The notes under the pieces were generated by a model. That model did no database searches. It had not been told where the DNA came from and worked only from the letters and a program-made list of their open reading frames with translations. A stretch of 64,000 nucleotides of DNA from Lytechinus pictus (lineage: Eukaryota). Both the position numbers and the translations under genes were made by a program. The stretch spans positions 21,144,001 to 21,208,000 of the forward strand of contig NC_087245.1 in assembly GCF_037042905.1 (NCBI RefSeq), in the 5' to 3' direction. This document shows positions 14,990-33,600 of this stretch, piece by piece; the first letter of the stretch is position 1, and the number at the start of each line of letters is the position of its first letter.

Positions 14990-17900
14990 CACTCACATTC
15001 ATCGTAATCAAAAGATACACGAAATGAAAATCAATAAAAAAAAAATACAATCCAACGAGACAATCTGAGATATATCATATGACATTGTCAGGATTGGAAC
15101 CAATTTCATGCATATTTTTTTTCAAACCTTTCCCCTTCACCCAAATGATTTCTTACGTTTCCTAAGGAAGACCGGTTTTAAGATGAATCCTGACGCGCCA
15201 TTCTGAAGGAACTTTCCTTGATTGAGATCCATTTCTTCACAAGGTGTCTGGAAGTTCAAAGCAACTGAAGGAAAAAAAAAAGGAAAGGGTGGATAAAATG
15301 AAAAATAATTAATGTTTCAGATATTTCACAGCATATATCAACAACTTTTGTTGGTTATGTCTTTTATACTCTTAACATGCATTGGTCCCTGATTGTAGTA
15401 TCAAATGTACATGTATTGCTGAACTAATCATAATCTATAAATTGAATACTTGACCATTTACCAGCTTTGGTCAACAATAGTCACAAACATACAGTCAAAT
15501 TCAATAAATACCCATCATCATTGAACAAGGAAATTAAAACACAGAGTTTTATGTGACATCTATCAAATAATCATTGGTATCCTTGTTCTCCTGAATTCAT
15601 AGTTAAAATTAATCTCAAAATCATCACTGTCATTATTTTCATCAAAATATCAGTACAACAGGCAAAGAGATAATAAAGTCTAGAGTCCCTTTCCATAGAA
15701 GAGAGACTGAATAAGAGCAAATGTCATAATGTATGAAATGACAGATTTTCAAAAAGACACAAACAGGGGACGAGCTGCCATTCTCTGATAGTTACCATAG
15801 TAACAGTCAGAGACCAGTGCTTCTCAGCCAATCAAAAACAATGATTTTGAATTGGCTTGATTATGAAGCAAATAATCATCTTACCAATCTGGGCACCTAC
15901 ATCCCACATAGGAACAGGGTTGTAGTTGGAAGAGTTGGTCCGGAGACCACCGGGGTAGATTCTACTCAAGAAGAGTTTGTTGTGCTCTACGTAGTCCTGA
16001 GCCTTATCCTCGGCCAAATTGAATGCTTTACCCTCGGCAAAGGAAGACATCTGGTGACATTTGTCTGTGGATGGGATACGATATTCTTCATCAAATTGGC
16101 AATCCTAAGGGTTGTGATGCTAACGTGAATTGTGATTATGAAAAATACCCGACTCTAGACTACAACATGGTACATGATTAGAAATTGCATATAACACTAT
16201 AAGCAGGTTTCAAAGAACATATCATTCAAAAGAAAAAAAAATACATCCAAAATAAAAATGTACTTGAAATATATGCTGTATATATTTATACAGATTTCAC
16301 TATTTATAATTTTTTGTAATACATTTTGTACATTTCACTGAAGAAAATGGCTTTTAAATTCTCAACACCAAAGAACAAGGCGTTGCGAAAATGGAAAACT
16401 GGAGACTTTAGGTTAAACCGTTGGAGGCTGAATGACTTTGCTCTAGCGCATGTTTTCCATAGACTCCAGCACGCATATATATGGACTCAGTTTCCAATGC
16501 GTAAAGGGAACTCACATTTCTCCTTTGATGAAGAGAAAGAGCCGTAGTGGACACTGGCAAGAGTGACGATATCTGACAGTTCTTTGGCTAACTTCAGCTT
16601 TTTCTGTGTACGTGAAAAACAGATGGAAAAAAGATACCATATTTAAAATGCTTAACATTAAAAAAGAGGACAAATACATTACAAGTACATGATCTGACAA
16701 CTTCATTTCCCCCTTTCAATAGATTCTACTTTTATTCAATGAATACTACCACTTATTGGCTTAAAAATCGTCATATTTGTATAATGGTATAATGAAATAA
16801 TCATGAAATATTCTAATCTCCATATCGATACCTACATGTAACACATTTAGGTGAAACTCTAACATTCAATAAATTTGTTTCATAGAAATTGTTAGTTGTA
16901 ATATTGTCATAAATTACCAAAACACCATTGATATTCCACGAAACGATTATTTCACATTTGTACATATGGGGGGGGGGGGGGGAGTGGCAAGAAACTGAAT
17001 TGTGTTCAATTTCAAATTGACAATAGATTAATCTTAATTATACCAACTGAATATAATTTGTTGTTGTGGCACGAAGCAGCCAAGCATCTAGTTCTTAATT
17101 TGTGCATATAATTGCAAGACTTATACATTAATTGATTTGGGGTTAACTGATTTATGACCTAAACTTTACTAAAAACAGTTTTTTTGCTACATTACCTTGG
17201 ATTACAAAGATAATATTCAGAAGTTATCTATTTTATCTATTAACTTACAACTTCTCATTAAACATTGACTTTTAGCACAGTAATCATTGACTGTTTTCAA
17301 AGCTTTGAACTTAATTACAATTAGTAAAACATATATTTAGTTTACTAAGCAATAAGAAAATTTTATTTTGAAAGGTAAGGCATGGGCAGGAAGGTTTTAG
17401 ACTTTAAGAAAGTAATCAAATAAATAGCACAGGAAAATTAAGTCTTACATGATAAGAAAGTTGCTAGCAAGAGAGAACACATATTTTTTTTTACTGAAAT
17501 AACTGAACTATGCGAGTACTAACACATGTAAAACACAAAGTAATCAGTATTATTAACTCATACTTAAACTTACACAGTACAAGCTTATATATGGTATTAA
17601 TGTTTTGAATCCCAAAATGCTTATTATGTCTATTAGATTCCTTTAGATCTTCAAATGTGGTGAAAATAACAGATTGTATAAGATATATTTATCACTGTTT
17701 TTTTTTTTGTTTACATAAAACTTGTATCCAACATGAATGCATGGAGAAGCCTTTAATCAACAATAAATGTGATTTTGTCTCTTAGAAGTCAATATGCTCT
17801 CCACTATAAAGCAGGAAAGGCCTTTACAAGCAAAGTAAAGTTTTACACCACAAGCAGATATTGTTTTTGCTCAAAAGAGGCATTTTTAGACACTCTAAAA

Positions 17901-20900
17901 GTTTTCTTTTTCAAAGTTTCAAGAGAAATCAACTAAGAGAGAGAGAAAAAAAAAATTAGCATGTAATACTCTATAATGAAAAAAAAAACCCGAATTAAAT
18001 ACAAGCATGTACATTAATTAAAACCATTGCCAATGTGGCAAGAGGCTACACGCAGTCGTTTCAACCGAATATTTTTAATCAAAGATACCACAGAGAATGA
18101 GAAAATTGACAAACATAGCAATAATTCATTAACAAGTTTCATTTAACAACTCTTACATATACCTCCCTTTTATTCCAAGGAGTATGCTTCTTTTGCATGC
18201 AGCCATACTGCTTCAGGATATTTCAATTCAAGACTACTTGTTATATGCTCCTCAAAAGAAAGTTTGGAAATCCAAGTTTGATTATTTTCCCCTTATAGTA
18301 AAAGTCAGTGCATGTTTTGCACTGTCACAAAGATTATTTTTTTGTTTTAAAAATGAACTTATTTTTTATGACTATGCCTGATGTAAAGGTGCATTGCTTA
18401 GGAATATTAAAGATTCAAAATTGAAAATTTCAAAGTAGATGAAGTTTAAAAAGTCACTCAATGGTTGACCGCCAACAGGGTTGTGGAAACTTTTTTTTTT
18501 CAGAATCCAGGTGTAAACTTAGTTCTGCGGCCTATGAATCAAGCACAATGCATTAATGTAGTTCAATACAGTTTTTTTTAATGCTCAGTGTCAGACATAG
18601 ATTGTTGTTTGTCAATTATTACTCAACAAATATCATTTGCATTCAATCAAGAAGTGTTTATCAAACAATGCATTAGACCTGTCTTAACTGTTGCTAATAG
18701 ACCTGCCAACTGAATGGCTTTAAAGAATATCAATAATATTATGATGGTACAAAATAGGCTCTGATTCCAATTACACATATCATTAAAAAAATCAAACCCC
18801 AATTTTTCAAACTTTTTGAGGAGTTTCTATAAATTGATTTTACTAGATTGACATGCACAACACATGCTGATCACAATGCACACTGAATGTATATGGGTGG
18901 TGTCAGAACATTCTCATCAGACAGGAACATGAGGGTGAGACAATGCGTACATTATATCTCGCTCCAATCTATCTGATCAGAACAATCCGATGCCATTAGG
19001 GGTAGGAGAGGCAGTTAATGATCAAGGTATATACACAACTCTATCATCTTCATCATATTCACAACATATATTCATGATTATATAGTTTGTTTTACCTGGA
19101 GCATGAATAGGGTGGGGTAATGCTGTGTACAAGGCATGCCATTGATTTATTAAGGAAAAAAAAAGATGGAGGTTACGGTGATGGATACAAGATTTAAACA
19201 TTAAAGTATGTGTATGCAATTATTATCAACTCAATACAAAATAAGGTTTTCATTTGTGCATAAAATAACAGATAATCTTTAAACTGCGTTCTACTGCTTC
19301 AAGAGTGTGGTCTTTTAATATAAGTTTTCATTCAATGCATGTTACATAGGGACTACTGCCAGATGTTAAAGGAGATGGGTGAAAGTTTCAGCAAAATTGA
19401 TGATCCAATCATTCTTTACAATTTGACTACTTTATATCAAATTTGTAAATATCAATTTTGTATTATTAATATCATCAATAACAATGTCTAATAATCAAAT
19501 AATATAATATCCTCTTCTCCAAGCCGATGTTAATGATAATCTTTGTACAAAGTATATTTGTTCAAATGTTCTCAAACATCTACATACTGAGTGAAAGACG
19601 GACAGTGCATGTAAGTTTATAGTGCTACTATCAATCTGACTATATTAAGCTATGGTACATACAATTTAGATTTTTTTCAGACACCATGCAGCAAAGCCCA
19701 ATAACAGTGTGCAAACAATGTCATTGGGATAAGAGGAGACGGAAATCAAATTTTTTGAAATATCCAGCAGAAAAGAAGGGGTATGGACAAACCCATTACA
19801 TCACAAGTTTGTTCATTAAGATGATTCTTCCAAAGTCAAGCTTATAAATTGACTTTACAACTATGATCATTAAAAAAAAACAGTTGCTGAGCCTTATTGC
19901 ACCATGTCAAAACGAGATCATTTAATTTTATTTGAGTCTTAAAATGACTCATTAAACAAACATACAAACAGACATATTCTTGGTGCTTTGAAGGGTGTCT
20001 TGTAAAGCTGTTCATAAAAGGTGATTTTACAAATGATTGCAGCGGAGAGCGCCAAAGTTTTTAACAACAATGGGGTAATAAAACATCTGTGTTTCAAGTA
20101 ATTCCAGCTTTTACATTAAATTTTTTTTTACCCGAAGTAAGTATCTTGATGATAAAGATTATTATCAATAACTGCATTTCAATTCAAGACACCCATTTGA
20201 CTTGCCATATCCATTCACTCATGAATAATGTTGTGCATGAATTTACGAACAACTTTATGAAACAGCCCTGCTAACTGGATAAACCACCACTGAAAGATAT
20301 CTAATCTAAAATACCACTTCCTAAGGAATCAGTTCTGTGCAAAACAATCCATATAGATATCTCATTTTTTTTTCTTAACACCCAGCTACCCGTGCATTCA
20401 AACTGATTTAACCAATAACACATTCAAATCAATCTACACTGAACATTATAGTTCTAATATCGGGTGTTTAATTATCGATATGTATAAGGATGTATATTTT
20501 AAGAAAGCATTATACTGCAGAAAAGCAAGGCTGGTATGAGAACCTTAAGAAGAAAGAAATATGCAATTCTATACATGGTTTGTTTTTATTCATTACTTGA
20601 TCAAGCAATTCTAAATTTAAAGGAAGAATCATTATTTTCATAACAATTTAACTTTAAGATTATTTTTCATTGAGGCCTCTAATATATGAATTTGGAAACA
20701 ATACTAAGCCACTACTTATTCTCATACTAAAATATGAATTTTCTTCTTTTTTTAAATTTAACTTGACAGTTTCAAAATATTACAACATGGGAGACGCAAT
20801 ATCCCCCAAAAACCATAGAAGCTCACATATTTGTGAAAATAAGAAAAGTACCAAGAAAGTCTTGAAAAGTAGGAGAGTAAAAGCAAATGGTGGTGATGAA

Positions 20901-23900
20901 AGTGCGTGAAAAGCTGTAGACTTCCGCCAAAAGCGGTAGAGCAGGCAACTATGGTGAATTGTAAAAATAGCAGAAAAAAATAATGAAAAATATTGGCGAA
21001 GGTTTGAGGAAAATCCACCAAAGAATAAAAAAATAAGTAATTAGAAGTTCAAATAATTTGATTTGTGACGACATATACAAGCAGCTTTCCTACATATCGT
21101 ATGGTAAAAAATCAATAAAATGTCGTTTTCTTAGAAAATTGAGAATGGTTTTTATTGTTCCTTCAGTATATCAATACACAAATCATTTCACACATGCTCC
21201 TAAAAAGAAAATGAAAAATAAGTCATTACAAACCATTAACAGAAGTAATTTATGCATTTTATATTACATAACATTTGGGGCAGCTGCTTGTTTATATCAC
21301 AAATCAAAAACTTGTAATTCTAATAACTTTCTTTAATAATATTCAATGGATTTTCCTAAAAACCTTCACCAATATTTCTTGTTATTTTTCCTGCTATTTT
21401 TACAACAAACTTTTCGTCAGGGTGAACTTCCCCTTAAATGCGTACTACACAAAGTCATGCAACATTACCACTACTTTCATTGTTACTGTCAAATAAAAGT
21501 AATATATAGCTATTTTCCTTTGAGCCTCAGAAAAAAAGTTTCTACACTACCAACATTGCACAAAACTTGATTTAATATACATGTATGTAGCTCAATCAAT
21601 GTAGTAAATTCTGCCAGCTACATGTAAAATGGAGTGCTCTCCTGTGTATTGTAACTTACAATAAAACTAAAACAGGTGACATGTGCATGATCATGTACAC
21701 GTATATCCTTATGTATGCATCAAGAATACAATAGAATATGAAACAAATGTGATCAGATTACACGTAAAATGGTCAAATATGGAAAAACCAAGTCGCAACA
21801 TAAAGGCACTAAGGAAATGTATTTGAAGATTATAGTCTCAACCGCTGACTATCATCTAAATATTCTTGGGCATTGCACACAGGTTCAAACCATGGTTGAA
21901 TTTATAAGCTGTTGCCTCTGTAGTTGTTAGTGCTGTTTTTGTGACCTTGGCAGTGCGAAGTCACTAGCCCAAACTCTAACCCAAGCAGGTGTATTCATAT
22001 AAAATATACAATAACAATATTTTGATAAAAAATGCAAATATACAGTAAACCTCAAGGATCTGTTAAAAACTTTCCCTCAAAATAAGAATAGGAGACACCA
22101 TTCCAATTTTGGTTTTATGAGAATTGAAGCCATTTCACTATGTTCCATGCAGTATTCTATACATGTACATGTAACAGTTACACTATGTAGTTCCATACAC
22201 ACCCTATACAGGTAGATCTATTATATTCCTCAAATGAGCTCGTCTAACTAACCCCCTTAAGTCACGGAAGAATCTGCTATCAAACTAAAACTCTATCTAA
22301 GACCCGTTTGGAATTTGAAATGGACCGATGAAACATGTAAACTGCACTAATCAATTGTTCTAGGGGTGGAAATAAAAGTTTTGACGCATACATGAATAAA
22401 AGATAAGGCACAATCTGCAAAGAGAATACATCATTGCATTTGGATTTTAGCTGTACATGTATGTGTCTGAAGATTTCAAACATAGTGTGCATGAATGTAA
22501 TATCACCGAATTTGGATTTTAGATGTAGTTGGGTTGAAGTATTTCAAACACAGCGTTATCTTATCAAAATTCACAGCAACTTTTTCATCATATCTTATAT
22601 ATATAGAGGGAAGGTATCTATTTGGAAGGGATAGAAAATGCTTTTTTTCTAAAGAAAGTTATCATAAAATGCACACACAGAAAGATTTGTCATATGGAGT
22701 TAAACCTCTTACATTTCAAAATCACATTGTAAGTTATTCAAATGAAATGGTAACAAAAATAAATGGATTTTATGGTAATTATGTACATGCATTCTCCGTG
22801 TGATTGATTACAAATGAAGCTGAATTTTTTTGTGGATATTTTGTTTATGGAGATTGGTACATGTATGTGAGTACAATCATAACAAAAATCAGGAAAAATG
22901 ATTTGTGAATATGCAAATATGCTTAATAAAACAAAGTGATGAGAATATTTGGTATTGTCTAGGTGTTGCTGAAATGGTTTTGAATAGTCATACTTGCTTC
23001 ATCAAAAAAAGGTTTGATGATAAAAAATGGGTTGAAAAAGCATAGTGGAAAAAGTCTGGAACACAACAAGAAAAGCTATGGTTAGAAATAGGCTTTATCA
23101 AAAATATGAGTTAATCGAAGCCGGTGGTGTAGGGCATGCTCTTCGTATGGCTACAAGACAGACACAAGTGACATAACTTACCTTTTTCTTGTCTTTTGAC
23201 TACATATAATACCAAATCATTCATAGACGAATGAAAAAAGGGAAGAATAACAAAGGCAGATTGAGGGGGAGAGAGAGAGAGAAGAGAAATACAACAACAT
23301 ACAATATTTAACATGATATAAATGGGGAGGAGGAATATATAAAAATGCAAGAGACATACATGTACGGGTGGGGTGACACATTTTCACAGATGGTAAGAGT
23401 CTGTGTGAGAACAATGAACTTCACGACAATTACATGATTTACATCAAAACTTAGAATGGCATGCTGGACAAATTCACAAGTGTACTACATTAATTAAAAT
23501 GATATGTACCAGCACAGTACCATTCACATATGTACATATATTTCACAGTGACTGATATTTGGATTCAACAATACTGTATAATGAAAAATTATTCATGCAA
23601 TTTAACGAAAATAATGAATCCTATCCTATTTGGGATTATATATCTTTTATTTTGAATCAATAGATTGAGAAGATAATACCCCCCCCCCCAAAAAAAAGAG
23701 AAGACTTAATTTTAATTATAAGCGAAACTGTAAGACATCTCACAGACAAGTTGACATTGGCAAAATGATGTAAATGTGATATCTAATTTGCATCAAAAGT
23801 CTGCTGGTATTATAACTTTCACATGTCACCTTTCACATCACTGCTTAGATTCAACTATTCAAACCTCATAAATTGCAACTAATCTACACCATGCATATAC

Positions 23901-26900
23901 ATTTTGAATAGAAAATTGTCTGTGTAGAGGGTATCCTAAAAGAATAAATGAATACTTTTGAAGAGTTGGATGTACTACCACTTCTAATGAAAAATACATG
24001 AAGAGATATCAGGAAAGGAAATATCTGCATCATAATAAGTGGATAACTACATACAACTAAATTATCATTATTAAAGTCTGTTTCATGTTCTAAAATACAT
24101 TTTCACATGATTTACAGATTTAGTAGTACGTTTCACATCATTACGTGAATTATATTTTCTGATTGTTAAAAAATTCTGACAGTTATTACACTACAAGTAA
24201 CTACATGGGTATTGTTTAAATGCCATATCTATGACGATTTGAAAAAAGGGTTTTTGAAAGGATTTAACAATAAGATGATCATATGTATAAACAAATATCA
24301 TTACTATGTGGGTTTCTTAGGGTACTATTTGGAACATATCTTTATTTTCATGCAATATTTCTCTCTGCTTGATCTATGCATAAAAGTGAACAAAAGGGAG
24401 TATTTTCAGAATATGAATTTATTTGATTCAATGTCAAAGCAAGAAGGCTCACCTAAAGTAAGTTTGATAAGCCTCTGGTTTGGTATTAAGAGGATTAAAT
24501 ACCAAAGAGAAATAAATAAGATGATTAAAATAAAATTTCAGGTTCCTTTTACATAAATAATAAAGTTCCTGTAATCTCTACTTTCCAGTCTCATATCATT
24601 GCAGTTTAGTTTTTTTTTAAATAAATTCAAATTATTGACCTATTCTGCAGTGAATTAAGTTGATGATTCCATCTGAATAATACAAAAATGGTATTGATGG
24701 TGCTAATAAAAGTGGTGCACAGTACTCCATATTGCATAATAAGGTCATAATTGAGTGAGGAGATAAATGGTGCTTACGGCTAAATGTGCTTGTCCAAAAA
24801 GTTTATTGAGTAATTTGAGTTGCAAACCTGTAATATGTTTCATACAATACATCACTGATGCACATACAACACTGATAACAATACAAATACATTCTACATT
24901 ATAAAGGCCCTGTTACATTGATCTTTCCGATTGAACAAAATGATGAATGCAATCATGGACCTACTAGGTCCATGATACAATCAATCATAATGATTGGCCC
25001 AACCATCAATTGCTAAGCTTTGTGAAACAAGGTCCTTGACAACACACATCGATGCGAAACCCAGGCAATACTCAAAACCAAGCAAATACACATATGTAAA
25101 AACCTTTGCAGGCAGAACATGTGAGTCCACAGAGGAAAAAAAAAATGGCAACAACTCATGAAATGACCAGAATTTGTGTACATGATGTAATGTACAACAT
25201 ACAACAATATCGAATACAAGTACACGTACGACAGGTGTTTCAGATGCTAGGAGTGAGAATCTTGCAAACTGGGTATTAAATTGGATGCTGGTGAGTGAGA
25301 GACGAATAATGAACATTCCTGTAATTTTAAAACTTACCTTTTCCCCTTCATCATTCTATGAAATCAATGAAACAATTATTCAGATATCTTTTAATACCAT
25401 GTTACCATACTGATTCTCATTTACTGCATTTGACAAGACTAAAAGCGTTGTTGTTTTATCCTCCATGTTCCTCTGACCCTATTCCTATCCTCTGAGCCTT
25501 CACACTTTTCACCATAATATATGTTGTTTATCATTTGCGAGTATGCAATATGCATTCTTTTATTATGTATCATTGTACAATGTAATGATCATGATTGGAA
25601 ACACCTAAAACAGCATCAGCAGTACAAGGAAGGAGGGAAACTGCCCTTCCCATGATTTTTTGAGTTGTGAAAGAAAAAGGGGGAGAAACAAAATTAAGAA
25701 AACAACAGCAAAAAGATGAAAAGTATCAAGAAGAGAAGTCTGGGTCATGGACTCTATATCATCCCTGTTATTTAATTGAGGACAAATATTACATAAGCTT
25801 CATGTCCTCTCATCCTCCCACCACTGACTTTACGATCCCTGCATCAATTACACCATCGAAACACGAGTTCCACAAACACCCACATGTCAAAACCATACAA
25901 TGGAAAGAAAAAATATTCATAAAGGTGTCTAAACATGTAACATCTTACTTATAAAAATATAAATGTCTTTTTAAACGATTTGATAATCTACATGTATTAA
26001 AGAAAATAAATGTATGTATAGTAAGTATAAATATATATTGCTGATTATTTGCAGTTATTTATCCTTCAAAATTTGCTGATAGATGTTGGATTTGTTTATT
26101 AATACTTAGCTGATAAAAAGACACCAGTATGAGTAAAGAACCACTTCCCGTCAGGAAATCATGTACCCTTAAAACTATGTGTAAAAAGCTACCCAAACAT
26201 GTCCTAGTTTCCATATTAACCACTTTGCACTCGACTATATTCTTCTCTAGACTTTAATACGAGAACCATTAAATCCCAGAGATAATGAGTTAATAATATT
26301 GAAGCAAGATTACATGGGGGCAAGCAAGCAAGCGGGCCAAGAAACACCTGGACAAGCAAAATGAATGTTGAGAATCAGTGTTCACCGATAATATTGCACC
26401 AACAAGACTCGAGAGACTTGATAAACTTGAGATTGAGGCCCTCCGAAAACTGCTTTTTCGCCTCTGGAGAAGGATAGGAAAAGGGAAGATCCAGGAATCA
26501 AGGAATATTTTAAATCTTTTATTTTACTGGGAGCACTGCAGCAAAATAATATGAGGGACCGCTGAAAAATAATTGTTTTCTTACAGCAAAAGATGGAACT
26601 TTTGCAAAAAAGTTTTTTTTTCTTGTGCTATCTTTCCAAAGTTTATCCTCAGCAATAATATGTTGATCATGATTGTGAAATGCAGTTTTTGTCTCTTTAA
26701 AGAAAGGAAGCCTGTGCACATTTCATAAAATCGTAGATTGGTTTAAAGACCAAAATTCACTAGCTGATTTTCAAGTACATATTTGATGACTAGAAAACAG
26801 CTGAAAACATTACTTTGATATGGCACATAGCAAGAGTATTGTACATGTATGCTTAAGCCCTGGATTTCAATCCATCTTATCCAATCTATTTTCTTCGCAT

Positions 26901-29900
26901 GTCATTTGTTTTACTTGCTGTAAGTTACTCTTGCATGGTTTAGGGCATATTCATTATATGTATCTCAACTAGAAAGCTTTCCCTTTTTGCAGCCATTTTG
27001 ATATCAGTTTTTGACATGTGAGTAAATTAGTACATCCCTCATTGCTTCGCATTCATAAATTTCATGCTTCAATTGGGTATTTGTCCTGCCTTTCTCTGAT
27101 AAACTGTATAATTTCAATGACATACATGACGTAATGTCTTGTAATATTTATACTTTATTTCCAGCACATACGTGCCAAGCTTGATATACAATACAAGGTC
27201 GAGTTGGGGCAATATGGATTTTAACACTTAACCTTTATGTTTTGCATCCAAACTGTTATGGAGATTCTATTGTCACGCATCCAATTTCAGTTCATTCACC
27301 TTTGGTAGATCACAATACCATAGGATATCTGACATTGGAATGATAGAAAACACATGTTGTATGTCGTTTTGGACCTACACTAGCACTAAATCTTGAGATT
27401 GATTAAAGCAGAACTTGGTCTGTATTAAGACAGTACCTTCTGTGTGGATATTATCCTTCCGCTAATATCAACTCCTCAGTTGGATGAAGCACCAAAATTG
27501 GATCTGTGGTGCTGGAATTATAAGGACCCTGGAAGTTGTCCCAAACAAGCAATTATCACTCAGATGGGTTTAAAGCATGTACATTTGACCTGCACTGCTA
27601 GAATTAGAAAGTAGAATCTTCTGTGTAGTAGTGTTCCTACACCAAATCATCAGATGGTACACAGCACATACACTTGATCTGTGGTGCTAGAATCACAAGC
27701 AGTACCCACGACAGTGACTTAACACTAACACCTAAACCTGAGGTAGATTAAAGCACCTAATAAAGCTAGAGTTATAGTTTACCTTGGAAGTTGCCTTCTT
27801 CTTCTCCAGCTCCGCCTTTAGTTGAGGATCTTCAGTGTCGATGTCAGCAGCCTCGTCTTCGTCACTGACTTCACCATCATCCTCTGCTGTGGTTGAAGGG
27901 GGAAGCCTCTTACCCTGATTAAAACATGTGATGCAATATTCAAATTATTGACTTATAAATTTTCTGATTCCTGTTGGCCTATTTTAATAGTGACCAGAAT
28001 CTTCTAATTTTCAACCTCCTAAAATATATGGACTCCTGATTGCACAGAGTAGTATAAGTCTCTGCCATTGCCAGATGGAGATAGCACACAAGCAACTTAA
28101 AAAACGATTGAATTTGATAGCCCCAAAACTTATCAGCTCACTGTCACTCATATGCAGACTTGGATCAAGTTTAAGGTAGATCATTCAAACAGTGTTTTAT
28201 TTGATATGAAAGTGAGACAGGTGGACAGACGAATGGGACATGGAGGCATAAAGATAAAATCTAATACTATTTCTAGGTCCGCATGTTAAATTTGTGATGC
28301 TTGTGTCTGCGTTTGAAATCTGTATACCTGCTATCCGTTGTGTGTACACAAGCTGCCACTGAGCTCTCCAAAACTCTTTTGCAAAATTCTTTCTACAAGG
28401 TCAATAGATAGCTTCATGTACATCAATAGATCAGTATATCTTCCTAGACAAATCTCACCAGAGATAGTAGAAACAGATATGTTGATGATTTAACAGTGAT
28501 ATTAAAAGAAAATATTATTGGAAAATTGAATATATATATGTGAATCTCAGGTTGTTTGTTGGGTGAAAAAAAAACAGATATTCATGCAAGGCTCTAAAGG
28601 AAGACTATGAGACTGATATATCAATCCATACAATACCTTGATAAGGATTTTTCCTTTAAGTTCCTCTGGTGATGGGAATGCTGCTGCATTGTGAAGGTTG
28701 TTATTGGTGTAAAGCTTGTCTGAAAAAAAATTAAAGGAATATACATGTTAGTCATAAAAATATCAAAGCAATTAAAATGCACTATTTGCCACACAATTTG
28801 CTTCAATTGTCTCTTATTTTGCCACTGTCCATCATCTCACTTTCATCAAGATCTTACTTAGGAAGGTATGAGAATTCAGTTAGTGGATCAATGACGATTG
28901 GCATTGTGACACTTATGTCTTTTGATAAAGGCATTAGTCAATCCATCCTCTGAGAGGCTATAAAACAATAAGTCCTCTGCTTTGCTTACAAGCACTCATG
29001 CTTAATGGGTATTTGCATCCTGATATGTATTATCACCTTCTGCTGGTCAACATGGTAAGGGTTCTCAAAGGACAGTATCACAAGATATCTTCATCACAGG
29101 TAGAGCAAGATCTTCCACATTCTTGTGTCTGACACCTAATAAGTAATAACTGCAACCTCTGCTTTAAAGAGTTATGTAGAAATGACCAAGTATCAACGTA
29201 GAGATCAGTGCCATCACCCATATGCAAGTCCACATTGCAAATGTTCTCTAAAGAGAGTGCAGAACACTTTTTCCGGGCAAGAAGGAAAAAAAAAAGTCCC
29301 TTCTTGTTTCTGACAATTTATAATTGCACCATTTTTCTTCTAAAGTGTTACCCAGAATTACCTTTGAGAATAGATGTACAGATCTGTGCCATCACCTTTT
29401 GTTGGTCCACACTGCAATGGTTCTCAAAGGACAGTATCAAAGGATACCTACAGTATAAAAGATATAAAAGATTTTGGTGTCTTAAAGCCACAGTGCCAAG
29501 ACAATGTGTTTATTCCAAGTCCTATAATACTCAGAGCCCCTGATTCTTTATCCACAATGCAATAATCTGACTAAGTGTACAAAGTCTTGTTATAAATGCC
29601 CACTAGAAGGAAGTTATATTTTTTGCCACTCTACATACAAATATTTTGAATTATATTACAATTAATCTTACAAGATCATTACGGCAACTGGGAATTATTT
29701 TAAACTGAACTAATAATATTTGTTCCATAATACATTGCCCTCATTTAAACATCACTTGTTTGCATAATTCTGAGAGATGGTCTATCTACAGTAAATGTAC
29801 ATGTACTCAACATCATGCATTAACCACAGTGTTCCTCTTTCACTATGATAAAAAATACCATTTATACACTACAGTTTTTATGGGATCAGTTCTTATTAAT

Positions 29901-30604
29901 CCTTATTCTTCCCTGCACTTGAAATTCCTTGTTCAGTCACATATTCCTTTCATTATTTAATTCTTACCCGCAGCCAGTGAATTTTTATATCTTTGGAAAG
30001 AGAGGTCGACCTGCTAGCCTCTCATGATAATTAATATTGGCAGTGAGTGTAATATGAAGTACGTGACTTGAAGACTTACTCTGAGGCAGCAAATGCATAT
30101 TTGTCTACCACTTCAATGATGTCTCTGAACTTGATCTTGGATGTCAGGGTGTGACCGTGGTAGACGATTGGGTCATTATCGGGTCCATCCCAGCAATCCA
30201 CTGAGGGTTAAAAAATATGAACAGAAGAAATATATACTAGTATTACATACAATAGAGATGTAAATGTAAATAGCATTCAGATCCTTAGACTTATTTTATT
30301 ATCTTCCTTTGCAATCTTTTCTCCTCATTTTCATATAAGCTTACAGGATAGATAACGTAACAATGGATGGTGGCAAATTTGCATGTTGTCAAATACATAA
30401 CAACAATTTTATGAATATGAGCAACAACCTTTTTAATATCGATTTTGATGACTGATTATTTTTGCCATAAACATCTGCCATCATCATCAACATCAACATC
30501 ATCATCATCATGACCATCATCATCATGACCATCATCATCATCCTCCTCATCATCGTCATCATCATCATCATCATCATCACCATCATCATCATCATAACCA
30601 TCAA

Positions 30605-30691
<87 letters not shown>

Positions 30692-33600
30692 TATCATCAT
30701 CATCATCATCATCATTCCTTCTCCTCATCGTCGTCGGCGTCATCATCATCATCATCATCATCACCATCATCATCATCTACATCATCTTCATAACAATCAC
30801 CACCATCAAAACATTCATCTTCTTATTCTTCACTACCATTTATATCATTCTCATTAGAATCACAGCTGCAAACATTGTCATTACCATCATCATCACCTTT
30901 AGCACTCCATTGCCACCATTTCCCCATTACCTTCCCTCTTCCTTAAATGTCAGTATCAACATCACTCCCATCATCATACACCAATACATCAATCCTACTT
31001 TGACCCTCAATGACCCCATGACCTCTACCATGTAACTTACATTCTACACATCTGCATCCTCTTTGCAATGCACTAATGTAGGCTTCTGTACTGCTTGGTC
31101 CTCGAAGCTGATCCTCCAACAAATATCTGCCATCAAAATGATCCAGTAAAAACAATCCATAATTGAAAATAGGTAATACATAGTCATGTTGATAAGAATT
31201 TTTTAACTATTAATTTTTCTCGGATTGCAATGCAAATAAATCATTCTATTAAATTACAAAAGGAAAATTATGATGTTACAGACAATTTAGATGTACAGTG
31301 TACATGTATCTCAAATATAAAATATATATCTAAAATATACTTATACTTACAAGTGATGGTGGCATATTTTTTTTTACCTCATGAGACCAAAATGTTGTCT
31401 TTTCCAGATTATTAGATTATATTGCATTATGTTCATATTAAAAAAAAAAATAGCACACTCATTTGACCTTTGAACCAGGTATTAAAGTTGAATTAAGAAG
31501 GGGGTGAGTTTCCATAAATATAGGTTCTACATACAATATATAGTATATATAAGTTGTTCAAACACATAGCATGTCACAATAATCCTCTGCCTTCTCGATA
31601 TTTTGCTTTGAAAGTCTATGAAATTAGCCACCTGTCAGAGCCCGAGAGACGAGTGTACAGAAAAGTCACTCGGAGTGTGACGTCACCGGGGGGAATTTAG
31701 TATAAGAGGTGCCTGAATGTCATACAGAAATGCTATGCAGAGAGAGAAAGATATTTTACAATTTTTTTTCAAAGCAACTCAAATCAAACAAATAGGACTG
31801 ATATGTACAAATCTTTACTTTCCCTGTATAAAAAACAGTATGAATAACCACCATGAACTCTTCAATCATGATGTAAGATAGCAAACAGTGAGTTATTGAA
31901 TGATATTTTCACTATTTCTCATTTATTTTATCACGATGTTCAATCAAGTGAGTAGCTGGAAAGTAATTCCGGCGGCTAGCTCAGCGCGCGCTGAACGCAT
32001 AATACTAGTACACACAACACCCAGGCATTGAGTGTACTGTTATGGTCTGGTATGTCGACTTAGTTCATGGCCGTGCAGCGATCCCCTGGCGTTTTTTTCT
32101 TCTTTTCTTTTGTCTTTGACTCCACTTTTATATCCTCTGGATCATTTCCACTCATAGCTCATTCCACAGAACAATCTTGAACCAAACGTATAGTATTCTT
32201 TCTTGGCCTTCTGAGTTGTTTTCTATATTTAATTACGCTAGGGGTCACCGTCACACATACAAACGCAATTCGGAAGTGAGTTGAAGACAGAAAGATATAT
32301 AGTAATTAGTATACATCTCTATGGTTGAAGACAACAAGAACGGTACGGTAGCTCGACAGCTAGCTGCGCCGGAGCGGGCGGCCGGTCGGCACAAAGCAAT
32401 TCCGCAACCAACTGTGTTTTTTTGCAAGAGCCGCGTCACACGCGGATAAATATGTCATAATAACACGTCTGCTACGTTATCGACTGGTGAGAAGATCTCG
32501 ATCAAATTTCATATTATTCACCTTGAAATTATTCCTTTAGGGTCTATGGTATCATTCTGAGGGAATTCACATATTTGGAATAATAGTACGGCCACAAATA
32601 TTTTAATCATTTCCTCTTTGCAAGTTCTATGGCTCGCAGATACAACTTCAACTGCAGTTATTCCATATGAAGGAGTACGTGCATAGTACACAAAACGGCA
32701 CTGCCTTGTTTACTAAACCGGGACCGAATACCCCCCCGGTGACGTCACACTCAAAGAACACCCGTCTCGGTAGGCATTGCAGGAGCGAACTCAGGGAAAA
32801 TGGGTACGGATAAATCGTTCAAATTCACTATTTTGAAAAAAGAAAATGGGGGGTCGAATCACCTATTAGTGTTTGGGGGGTTGTAAGGTTGCTATTAATG
32901 TAAATATCTCAATATTTGGAATCGTCTTCTTAATTCAACTTTAAGCCCTTAAAGTGGTTTTTGTTTAATAACAATGAACAGGATGTGCTTAATTAGTGTG
33001 CCAACTTAGGGGGCAATCCAATGACTTTTTCTCACTTTATTTATTTTTTACCTCTCTTTGTCCCCTTCTCACAACAATGGGAGTGTATTAAAGTAAGTTT
33101 GCTTCAATGGACTGGCCCACTTTATTTAATAAACTTCATTAAAAGTAACATTCTATTGTAGCAATATGAATTAAGATCATCCAATGGTTGCAAGTTATAC
33201 ATCATTTCATCTCCTTTTTCAGAATGGAATTCACTTCTGGTCATTAATTATTAATTCATTTGTTTATATTTTATTTATTAATTAATAAATTCATTTATTC
33301 ATTTTATTATGTATTAATTCATTCATTTATATATTTAATATTTTAGTCATTCATTTTCATCTAATTTTTTTGTAGTGCCTGGTGGGTGTTTCATAGAACT
33401 GTTTGTATCAAAGTTACAAATGACCTTCGACACAACTGATGTCCCTTCCTTGTCGGTGCTACATTATATAGATCTATGTAGCTGTCTTTGAGCACCTAAG
33501 AAATTGATTCAGCAATGTGAAGTCATGTGTAACCTTGCGAACAGCTTTATAAAACACCCACCTGGCTGGTGTTTCAAGTAAAGGTTAGGTGTGACTTGAA

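Follow-up and report, generated by a model that had tools for sequence, protein, structure and literature searches.

Two microexons of opposite charge in the X-Y linker of a sea urchin PLC-delta and their possible role in tuning linker charge

In a stretch of 64,000 nucleotides (nt) of the Lytechinus pictus genome (contig NC_087245.1, positions 21,144,001 to 21,208,000; hereafter the window), we analyzed a PLC-delta gene in which one long intron separates the exon encoding the X-Y linker from the first exon of the Y box. We found that this intron contains two 18-nt segments, here called microexons A and B, which encode hexapeptides of opposite charge (NDEGEK and SKDKKK, respectively), as well as a third segment of 27 nt, called C (HYPTLFMLQ). 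The reading that we propose, with a probability of about 0.6, is that A and B are genuine alternative cassettes that tune the charge of the linker, and that C is a chance match. Within this reading, it is very probable that A and B are both real exons, and rather tentative, at somewhat less than even odds, that the tuning of charge has a measurable functional effect. The exons, the splicing of A, the annotation and conservation of A and B and the charges are demonstrated by the data presented below.

All three segments had been proposed in an earlier note on this DNA as frame-preserving microexons of opposite charge, and all are present on the minus strand with the predicted coordinates, peptides and splice dinucleotides. 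The proposal held for A, which is seen in reads, and for B, which is seen in RefSeq models, and it failed for C, which is found in neither. Each segment is at most 30 nt long, a multiple of 3, bounded by AG and GT and free of stop codons. The host intron was likewise confirmed as phase 0, with ..KKKATSK/gtaaac at 27783, acag/ before 16603 and RNA joints at both ends. For the RNA analysis, positions 15050-29600 of the window were compared with four sequencing runs, of which X1 and X15 are contig runs guessed to be RNA, and X19 and X21 are raw-read runs of RNA depleted of ribosomal RNA, with the same species label. All four runs are coded and carry no tissue label, and a joint was listed when it was represented by 3 reads or by a contig. 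The features concerned are the following, with donors ranked among the 164 candidate segments of the intron described further below.

27783..27914, minus strand: constitutive X-Y linker exon (GKRLPPS.., then the acidic block), 132 nt, 3' end in phase 0; RNA joints at both ends in 4/4 runs
16604..27782, minus strand: phase-0 intron hosting the cassette microexons, 11,179 nt; direct joint 16603->27783 in X19 (20 reads) and X21 (5 reads)
25338..25355, minus strand: microexon A, NDEGEK, net charge -2, alternative cassette, 18 nt; tag/AATGATGAAGGGGAAAAG/gtaagt; donor 9/9, rank 1/164
23182..23199, minus strand: microexon B, SKDKKK, net charge +3, alternative cassette from RefSeq models, 18 nt; tag/TCAAAAGACAAGAAAAAG/gtaagt; donor 9/9, rank 2/164
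23200..23398, minus strand: AG-free zone upstream of B, 199 nt; likely a distant branch point and polypyrimidine regulatory region
19096..19122, minus strand: segment C, HYPTLFMLQ, 27 nt; cag/..CAG/gtaaaa; donor 7/9, tied with six others
16516..16603, minus strand: first Y-box exon, acceptor for all linker forms; joints 16603->25338 and 16603->27783

The results show that microexon A is a real alternative exon and the major form in the runs examined. All constitutive joints of the region were present in 4/4 runs, with the strand expected of a minus-strand mRNA, and the joint 16603->25338, which connects the donor of A to the Y exon, was also present in 4/4 runs, at a contig depth of 479 in X1 and 226 in X15 and with 21 reads in X19 and 68 in X21. 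In an X1 contig, exactly 18 letters separate the pieces lying on 16516-16603 and 27783-27913. In X19, we found 35 extra reads with 16 unaligned letters between 16605 and 27783; once the two neighbouring bases are added, these letters make up microexon A, to which we assigned the reads by hand comparison with its sequence. One synonymous change in a glycine codon of A is carried by 32 of these reads, while 3 have the reference letters; with an exon of only 18 nt, the aligner was unable to position the variant copy, whose letters it returned as lying between the flanking exons. The skip joint 16603->27783 was supported by 20 reads in X19 and by 5 in X21, and no contig of X1 or X15 had it. Transcripts with A and transcripts without it are therefore both seen (56 versus 20 reads in X19, 68 versus 5 in X21), from which we estimate the inclusion of A at about 56/76 (74%) in X19 and 68/73 (93%) in X21. 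The search for junction reads that had been suggested as a check was thus successful for A in every run. As a separate observation, X19 is heterozygous at 25344, the synonymous position in the glycine codon of A, with 32 variant reads versus 21+3 reference reads.

Conservation of A and B was found at the level of protein isoforms. We assembled the 90%-identity clusters of three urchin proteins, which gave 22 sequences, 21 of them full length, and classed the isoforms at the junction KKKATSK^KKLKLAK; all are automated RefSeq models (XP_ accessions) except P0020, which corresponds to a cloned Strongylocentrotus purpuratus complementary DNA record (NP_001008790 / AAS45642) and has no insert. The 21 full-length isoforms comprise 9 with the acidic insert alone, 4 with the basic insert alone, 2 with both and 6 with neither, distributed as follows.

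No insert (6): L. variegatus P0008, P0012; S. purpuratus P0016, P0017, P0020; Diadema P0022; none in L. pictus
Acidic hexapeptide (9), NDEGEK in Lytechinus: L. pictus P0001, P0004; L. variegatus P0006, P0009, P0010, P0011
Acidic hexapeptide (same 9), other genera: S. purpuratus TEEGEK P0018; Diadema EDGGGQ P0002, P0021
SKDKKK (4): L. pictus P0005, P0014; L. variegatus P0007; S. purpuratus P0003; none in Diadema
Both inserts, acidic first (2): S. purpuratus P0015, P0019; none in L. pictus, L. variegatus or Diadema

The acidic exon is represented by NDEGEK in the two Lytechinus species, by TEEGEK and by EDGGGQ, and the basic exon by SKDKKK in three species, the peptide being identical in L. pictus, L. 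variegatus and S. purpuratus. In S. purpuratus, all four combinations (neither insert, either one, and both) have been modelled. The nonapeptide HYPTLFMLQ of segment C occurs in 0/21 full-length urchin isoforms. Within the L. variegatus set, the pairs P0006/P0011 (777 versus 779 residues) and P0009/P0010 (758 versus 760 residues) share the same insert and differ by 2 residues elsewhere, which suggests that the orthologue has one more small alternative splicing event.

We then considered the splice signals around the three segments. The intron holds 164 in-frame, stop-free AG..GT segments of 9-30 nt, compared with 165 +/- 16 in 200 block shuffles; since this count equals the shuffle expectation, the bare criterion of an open AG..GT segment in frame is no evidence by itself. 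Among the 164 candidates, only A and B match the donor consensus (AAG/GTAAGT) at 9/9 positions, and their bodies are rich in purines (89% for A, 83% for B). Upstream of B, the 199-nt AG-free zone is longer than any other such run in the intron (533 in all) or in the gene span (2362), and it includes a CU-rich tract at about 23240-23289 (-90 to -41) that is 88% pyrimidine; A has an ordinary AG-free zone of 30 nt, and C has one of 105 nt (rank 5/533). The CT-rich tract that had been described before SKDKKK, as well as the T-run (at about -40) and the TGC (at -14) before HYPTLFMLQ, are all present. A long AG-exclusion zone generally indicates that the branch point lies far from the exon, and such zones are frequent at regulated exons; CU-rich tracts typically act as silencers of the PTB type. 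Recognition of both short exons could rely on their perfect U1-complementary donors and their purine-rich bodies, with B additionally controlled via a distant branch point and the CU-rich tract. Together with the RefSeq isoforms of three species, the donor and acceptor signals indicate that microexon B is probably real, and it may be a rarer or tissue-restricted alternative to the mostly included A. An origin of A and B from one another by exon duplication was rejected, because their flanks have only the splice consensus in common. In the genome, the flanks of B and those of C are each single copy.

The earlier note had brought up SRRM3/4 factors, acting through UGC motifs, in connection with these segments. 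Such motifs sit a short distance before the 3' splice site, after the polypyrimidine tract and ahead of the AG. We found no such signature at the two supported exons: the nearest upstream TGC lies at -73 for A and at -59 for B, so that no TGC occurs within 58 nt of either acceptor, and only the unsupported segment C has a close one, at -14. The Rbfox motif TGCATG is also absent within 200 nt of A, B and C. Microexons A and B resemble the neural microexons regulated by SRRM3/4 (through the eMIC domain) in their 18-nt size, in keeping the frame and in adding charged residues to a disordered regulatory region, and differ from them in having acceptors that lack a close UGC. Moreover, A is the major form in 4/4 runs, none of them with a tissue label, which does not suggest a narrow neural programme. 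An alternative in which all three segments, including HYPTLFMLQ, are used combinatorially under SRRM3/4-type, UGC-dependent control could draw on the TGC at -14, the T-run and the 105-nt AG-free zone of C, and on the dating of the eMIC domain to early bilaterians that is reported in the relevant part of PMC12992808. We nevertheless regard it as very improbable, given that C appears in none of the 21 isoforms, that no joint to 19096-19122 reached the threshold in any of the 4 runs, that an X15 contig of depth 2 runs unspliced through 19064-19397, across C, and that the C donor, at 7/9, is unexceptional; in addition, C would place a hydrophobic nonapeptide in a charged linker, and A and B lack the motif close to their acceptors. 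On present evidence, segment C is very probably a chance open AG..GT match and not an exon.

Both A and B enter the linker near the Y box, in the middle of the polybasic stretch (..EKKKATSK^KKLKLAK..) that forms its C-terminal end, where the acidic insert splits the lysine run with the residues D-E-G-E and the basic insert lengthens it to 13 K/R in 25 residues. Measured over the span from GK(R/S)LPPS to KKLKLAK, the whole linker of L. pictus has a net charge of -5 in the A form and of 0 in the B form, and the linker of the skipped form comes to -2 in L. variegatus and to -4 in S. purpuratus. The C-terminal segment, defined as that after PQL, has a charge of +7 when neither insert is present, compared with +5 in the A form and +10 in the B form; when the two occur together (in S. 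purpuratus), it is +8. Depending on the isoform, a C-terminal basic cluster is present with 9 to 14 K/R among the last 19 to 31 linker residues.

These values can be set beside what has been described for other PLCs. In the passages of PMC4525138 that concern autoinhibition, the acidic X-Y linker is described as occluding the active site of PLCs, and repulsion by the negatively charged membrane is the proposed cause of its displacement; deletion of the linker raises the basal activity of PLC-beta, -delta and -epsilon (PMC4525138, and Hicks et al. 2008 as summarised there). The urchin linker is alike, as far as that account goes, in having a conserved acidic block and in being net negative in both the skipped and the A forms. 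In PLC-zeta, a basic linker cluster binds phosphatidylinositol 4,5-bisphosphate (PIP2), according to the corresponding sections of PMC4525138 and PMC12195575; this lysine cluster borders the Y domain, at the C-terminal end of the X-Y linker, as does the basic run of the urchin form with SKDKKK. Unlike the urchin enzyme, which has a PH domain, an acidic block and a basic run altered by splicing, PLC-zeta, as portrayed in those sections, has no PH domain and a constitutively basic linker. Based on these parallels, we propose that the splice choice could set an electrostatic balance between an autoinhibitory acidic block and a lipid-seeking basic end. With B included, the basic end of the linker would bind more readily to acidic lipids or PIP2, in the manner of PLC-zeta, and the net-negative autoinhibition would be weaker, while A would act in the opposite direction, away from engagement of the membrane or PIP2. 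A tuning of autoinhibition or of membrane binding by charge is plausible.

Several observations weigh against this proposal. No joint to 23182-23199 reached the threshold in any of the 4 runs, even among about 76 and about 73 junction reads in the two raw-read runs, so that the junction-read check came out negative for B (no joint with at least 3 reads) and the reality of this exon therefore rests on automated RefSeq models and on the sequence signals described above. In Lytechinus, no model carries A and B together. The charge shift caused by A is small (-2), and the functional and regulatory consequences of the inserts are, for every isoform, ones that we infer. Finally, the length and the sequence of the insert vary between echinoderm classes, as detailed below, which fits a tolerant disordered spacer equally well.

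The lack of a B joint in the four runs is also what would be expected if SKDKKK were an annotation artefact, that is, a model exon passed between species by homology, with NDEGEK as the sole true exon. In line with this possibility, we found no short transcript-derived protein fragment with SKDKKK: none of 30-415 residues was recovered at E<=1e-15 among 241 candidates. Yet contigs drop rare forms and the runs have no tissue label, so the absence of B limits its share in these samples and is no disproof. The artefact explanation is further opposed by the 9/9 donor of B, by its acceptor zone, the longest AG-free zone of 2362, and by its CU-rich tract, as well as by the identity of the peptide in six RefSeq isoforms from three species, two of which combine it with the acidic exon. 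It also seems unlikely, judging from how annotation pipelines presumably work, that an 18-nt exon in an 11-kb intron would be modelled without transcript alignments. Taken together, these results make the artefact explanation improbable.

Insertion at this site extends beyond the urchins. Using a region-focused protein search, cluster look-ups and alignment, with the site defined as that just before the KLKLA(K/R)E(L/I)S exon, we found cassette inserts at this intron position in RefSeq isoforms of all four echinoderm classes sampled. In sea stars, the inserts are of 7 residues, SSKKEGQ in Patiria and Acanthaster and VSKKEGQ in Asterias, the last of which also has a further insert of 13; the brittle star Amphiura has an insert of 14 residues, and the crinoid Anneissia has inserts of 3 and 18. 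As cassette inserts occur in every echinoderm class sampled, the site is a recurrent place for short alternative exons. By comparison, no insert was present at the site in two hemichordate genera (Glandiceps, 3 proteins; Ptychodera, 1), the fish PLC-delta1 isoform sets examined showed differences of 1 to 2 residues near the site and no cassette exon, and Priapulus showed a 3-residue difference near it. Among the groups compared, the acidic/basic pair was found only in Lytechinus and Strongylocentrotus. As a side observation, Amphiura filiformis (P0029, P0150-P0154) has a second alternative segment, GKKHKLNLQD, at the N-terminal end of the X-Y linker.

This variety bears on a second alternative, in which A and B are real exons that are nearly neutral, the intron before the Y box being permissive for short in-frame exons and the linker disordered and tolerant of insertions. 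Consistent with such permissiveness, the inserts of 3, 6, 7, 13, 14 and 18 residues in the different echinoderm classes have no common sequence, the two hemichordates and the examined fish PLC-delta1 isoforms have none, and the flanks of A and B are alike only in the splice consensus. What speaks against near-neutrality is that Lytechinus and Strongylocentrotus have the same basic peptide (SKDKKK) and nearly the same acidic one (NDEGEK/TEEGEK), that A is included at 74-93%, that both exons have perfect donors and B an exceptional AG-free zone, and that the charged character is retained in every urchin version, including EDGGGQ of Diadema. We consider the near-neutral explanation a serious one, though on balance unlikely.

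Splice variants with linker inserts are already known for a PLC-delta of mammals, and these provide the closest precedent for the charge-tuning cassettes proposed here. In PLC-delta4, the X-Y linker is extended by 32 residues in the ALT-I form and by 14 in the ALT-II form, the latter being the predominant one in sperm (PMC2172882, and Nagano et al. 1999 as described there); according to the same description, the linker-insert variant is the sperm form and is needed for the acrosome reaction. The mammalian and urchin cases are alike in that an in-frame peptide enters the X-Y linker by alternative splicing, as PMC2172882 presents it, and unlike in that the mammalian inserts are of 32 and 14 residues, versus two independent 6-residue microexons of opposite charge in urchins. 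A literature search, in which few subscription papers were covered, returned no PLC linker whose net charge is set by a choice between acidic and basic microexons, and no paper on these urchin exons. Given that the exons are already included in automated RefSeq models, the new content of this work is the reading and not the exons.

A broader version of the proposal, which we advance as a speculation and think rather unlikely as a whole, would describe camarodont urchins as having a two-microexon electrostatic switch in PLC-delta, in which the B form, with its extended basic run, would resemble PLC-zeta in seeking the membrane or PIP2 and be more active, and the A form, with its run interrupted, would be more autoinhibited. 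Gametes are an example of the cells to which the B form would be restricted. In this version, the intron preceding the Y box serves as a site where PLC-delta activity is tuned by splicing, conserved across echinoderms and in parallel with mammalian PLC-delta4 ALT-I/II.

PLC-delta is the most Ca2+-sensitive type of PLC, and sea urchins are a classic system for Ca2+ signalling at fertilisation. The four natural isoforms differ only by an acidic and/or a basic hexapeptide, placed where PLC-zeta binds PIP2 and where other PLCs are autoinhibited. With them, the view that linker autoinhibition is electrostatic could be put to a clean and direct test, and L. pictus is an animal open to both injection and editing. 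Should the isoforms prove alike in activity and binding, they would instead document a permissive microexon hot spot in a disordered linker.

The gene itself lies on the minus strand, from 58455 to 12958 and beyond, and matches the RefSeq models at 100%. The translation of the linker exon (27914-27783) is 100% identical to the L. pictus RefSeq protein "PLC delta-4-like isoform X1" (P0001, XP_054753553.1) and has 89-91% identity to S. purpuratus and Diadema setosum proteins. By tblastn with three L. pictus isoforms, 16 exons were mapped at 87.5-100%, and an exact-peptide search added 3 further exons; the X-box exons have a stop-free translation that agrees with RefSeq. The domain order PH - EF hands - X - Y - C2 was found in the precomputed Pfam annotation of the 100%-identical P0001: PF00169/PF16457 (PH), PF09279/PF13405 (EF), PF00388 (X), PF00387 (Y) and PF00168 (C2). 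Domains, exon mapping and RefSeq match all agree with the assignment to PLC-delta that had been made from the sequence. Two alternative N-termini occur in the RefSeq isoforms, MNCFRPRTSSFGDD.. (26 residues) and MGDNQGQ.. (7 residues), each joined to the exon 58455-58303; by exact-peptide search, neither of the first coding exons (MNCFRP.. and MGDNQG..) was located within the 64-kb window.

Further observations concern repeats and local duplications in the introns. The statement of the earlier note that the host intron contains no intact young miniature inverted-repeat transposable element (MITE) is roughly correct, but the same intron contains, at 20959-21438, a MITE-like foldback repeat of about 480 nt, whose inverted arms are long and imperfect. 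At first look, it has 4464 candidates genome-wide, and the 39 other full-length copies that were scored are just 83-86% identical. In the RNA contigs, this repeat has a very high depth on both strands (about 2000 in X1), with joints classed as "opposite strands". Farther upstream in the gene, positions 28989-29090 hold a degenerate copy (about 80% identity over about 85 nt) of the X-box exon 29363-29452, located about 370 nt downstream of it, in the next intron; the copy has lost its donor site, is used by no RNA joint, and represents a pseudo-exon derived from a local duplication. An intron between X-box exons contains a (CAT)n array of about 104 units (30479-30791), which is read on the minus strand as long poly-Met and poly-Asp open frames. 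Another intron, that between exons 15885 and 15264, is covered at positions 15790-15847 by oppositely oriented reads (32 in X19 and 16 in X21) whose ends are loose on either side, and a 1333-nt X1 contig also maps to this region, which probably belongs to another transcript or to an expressed repeat.

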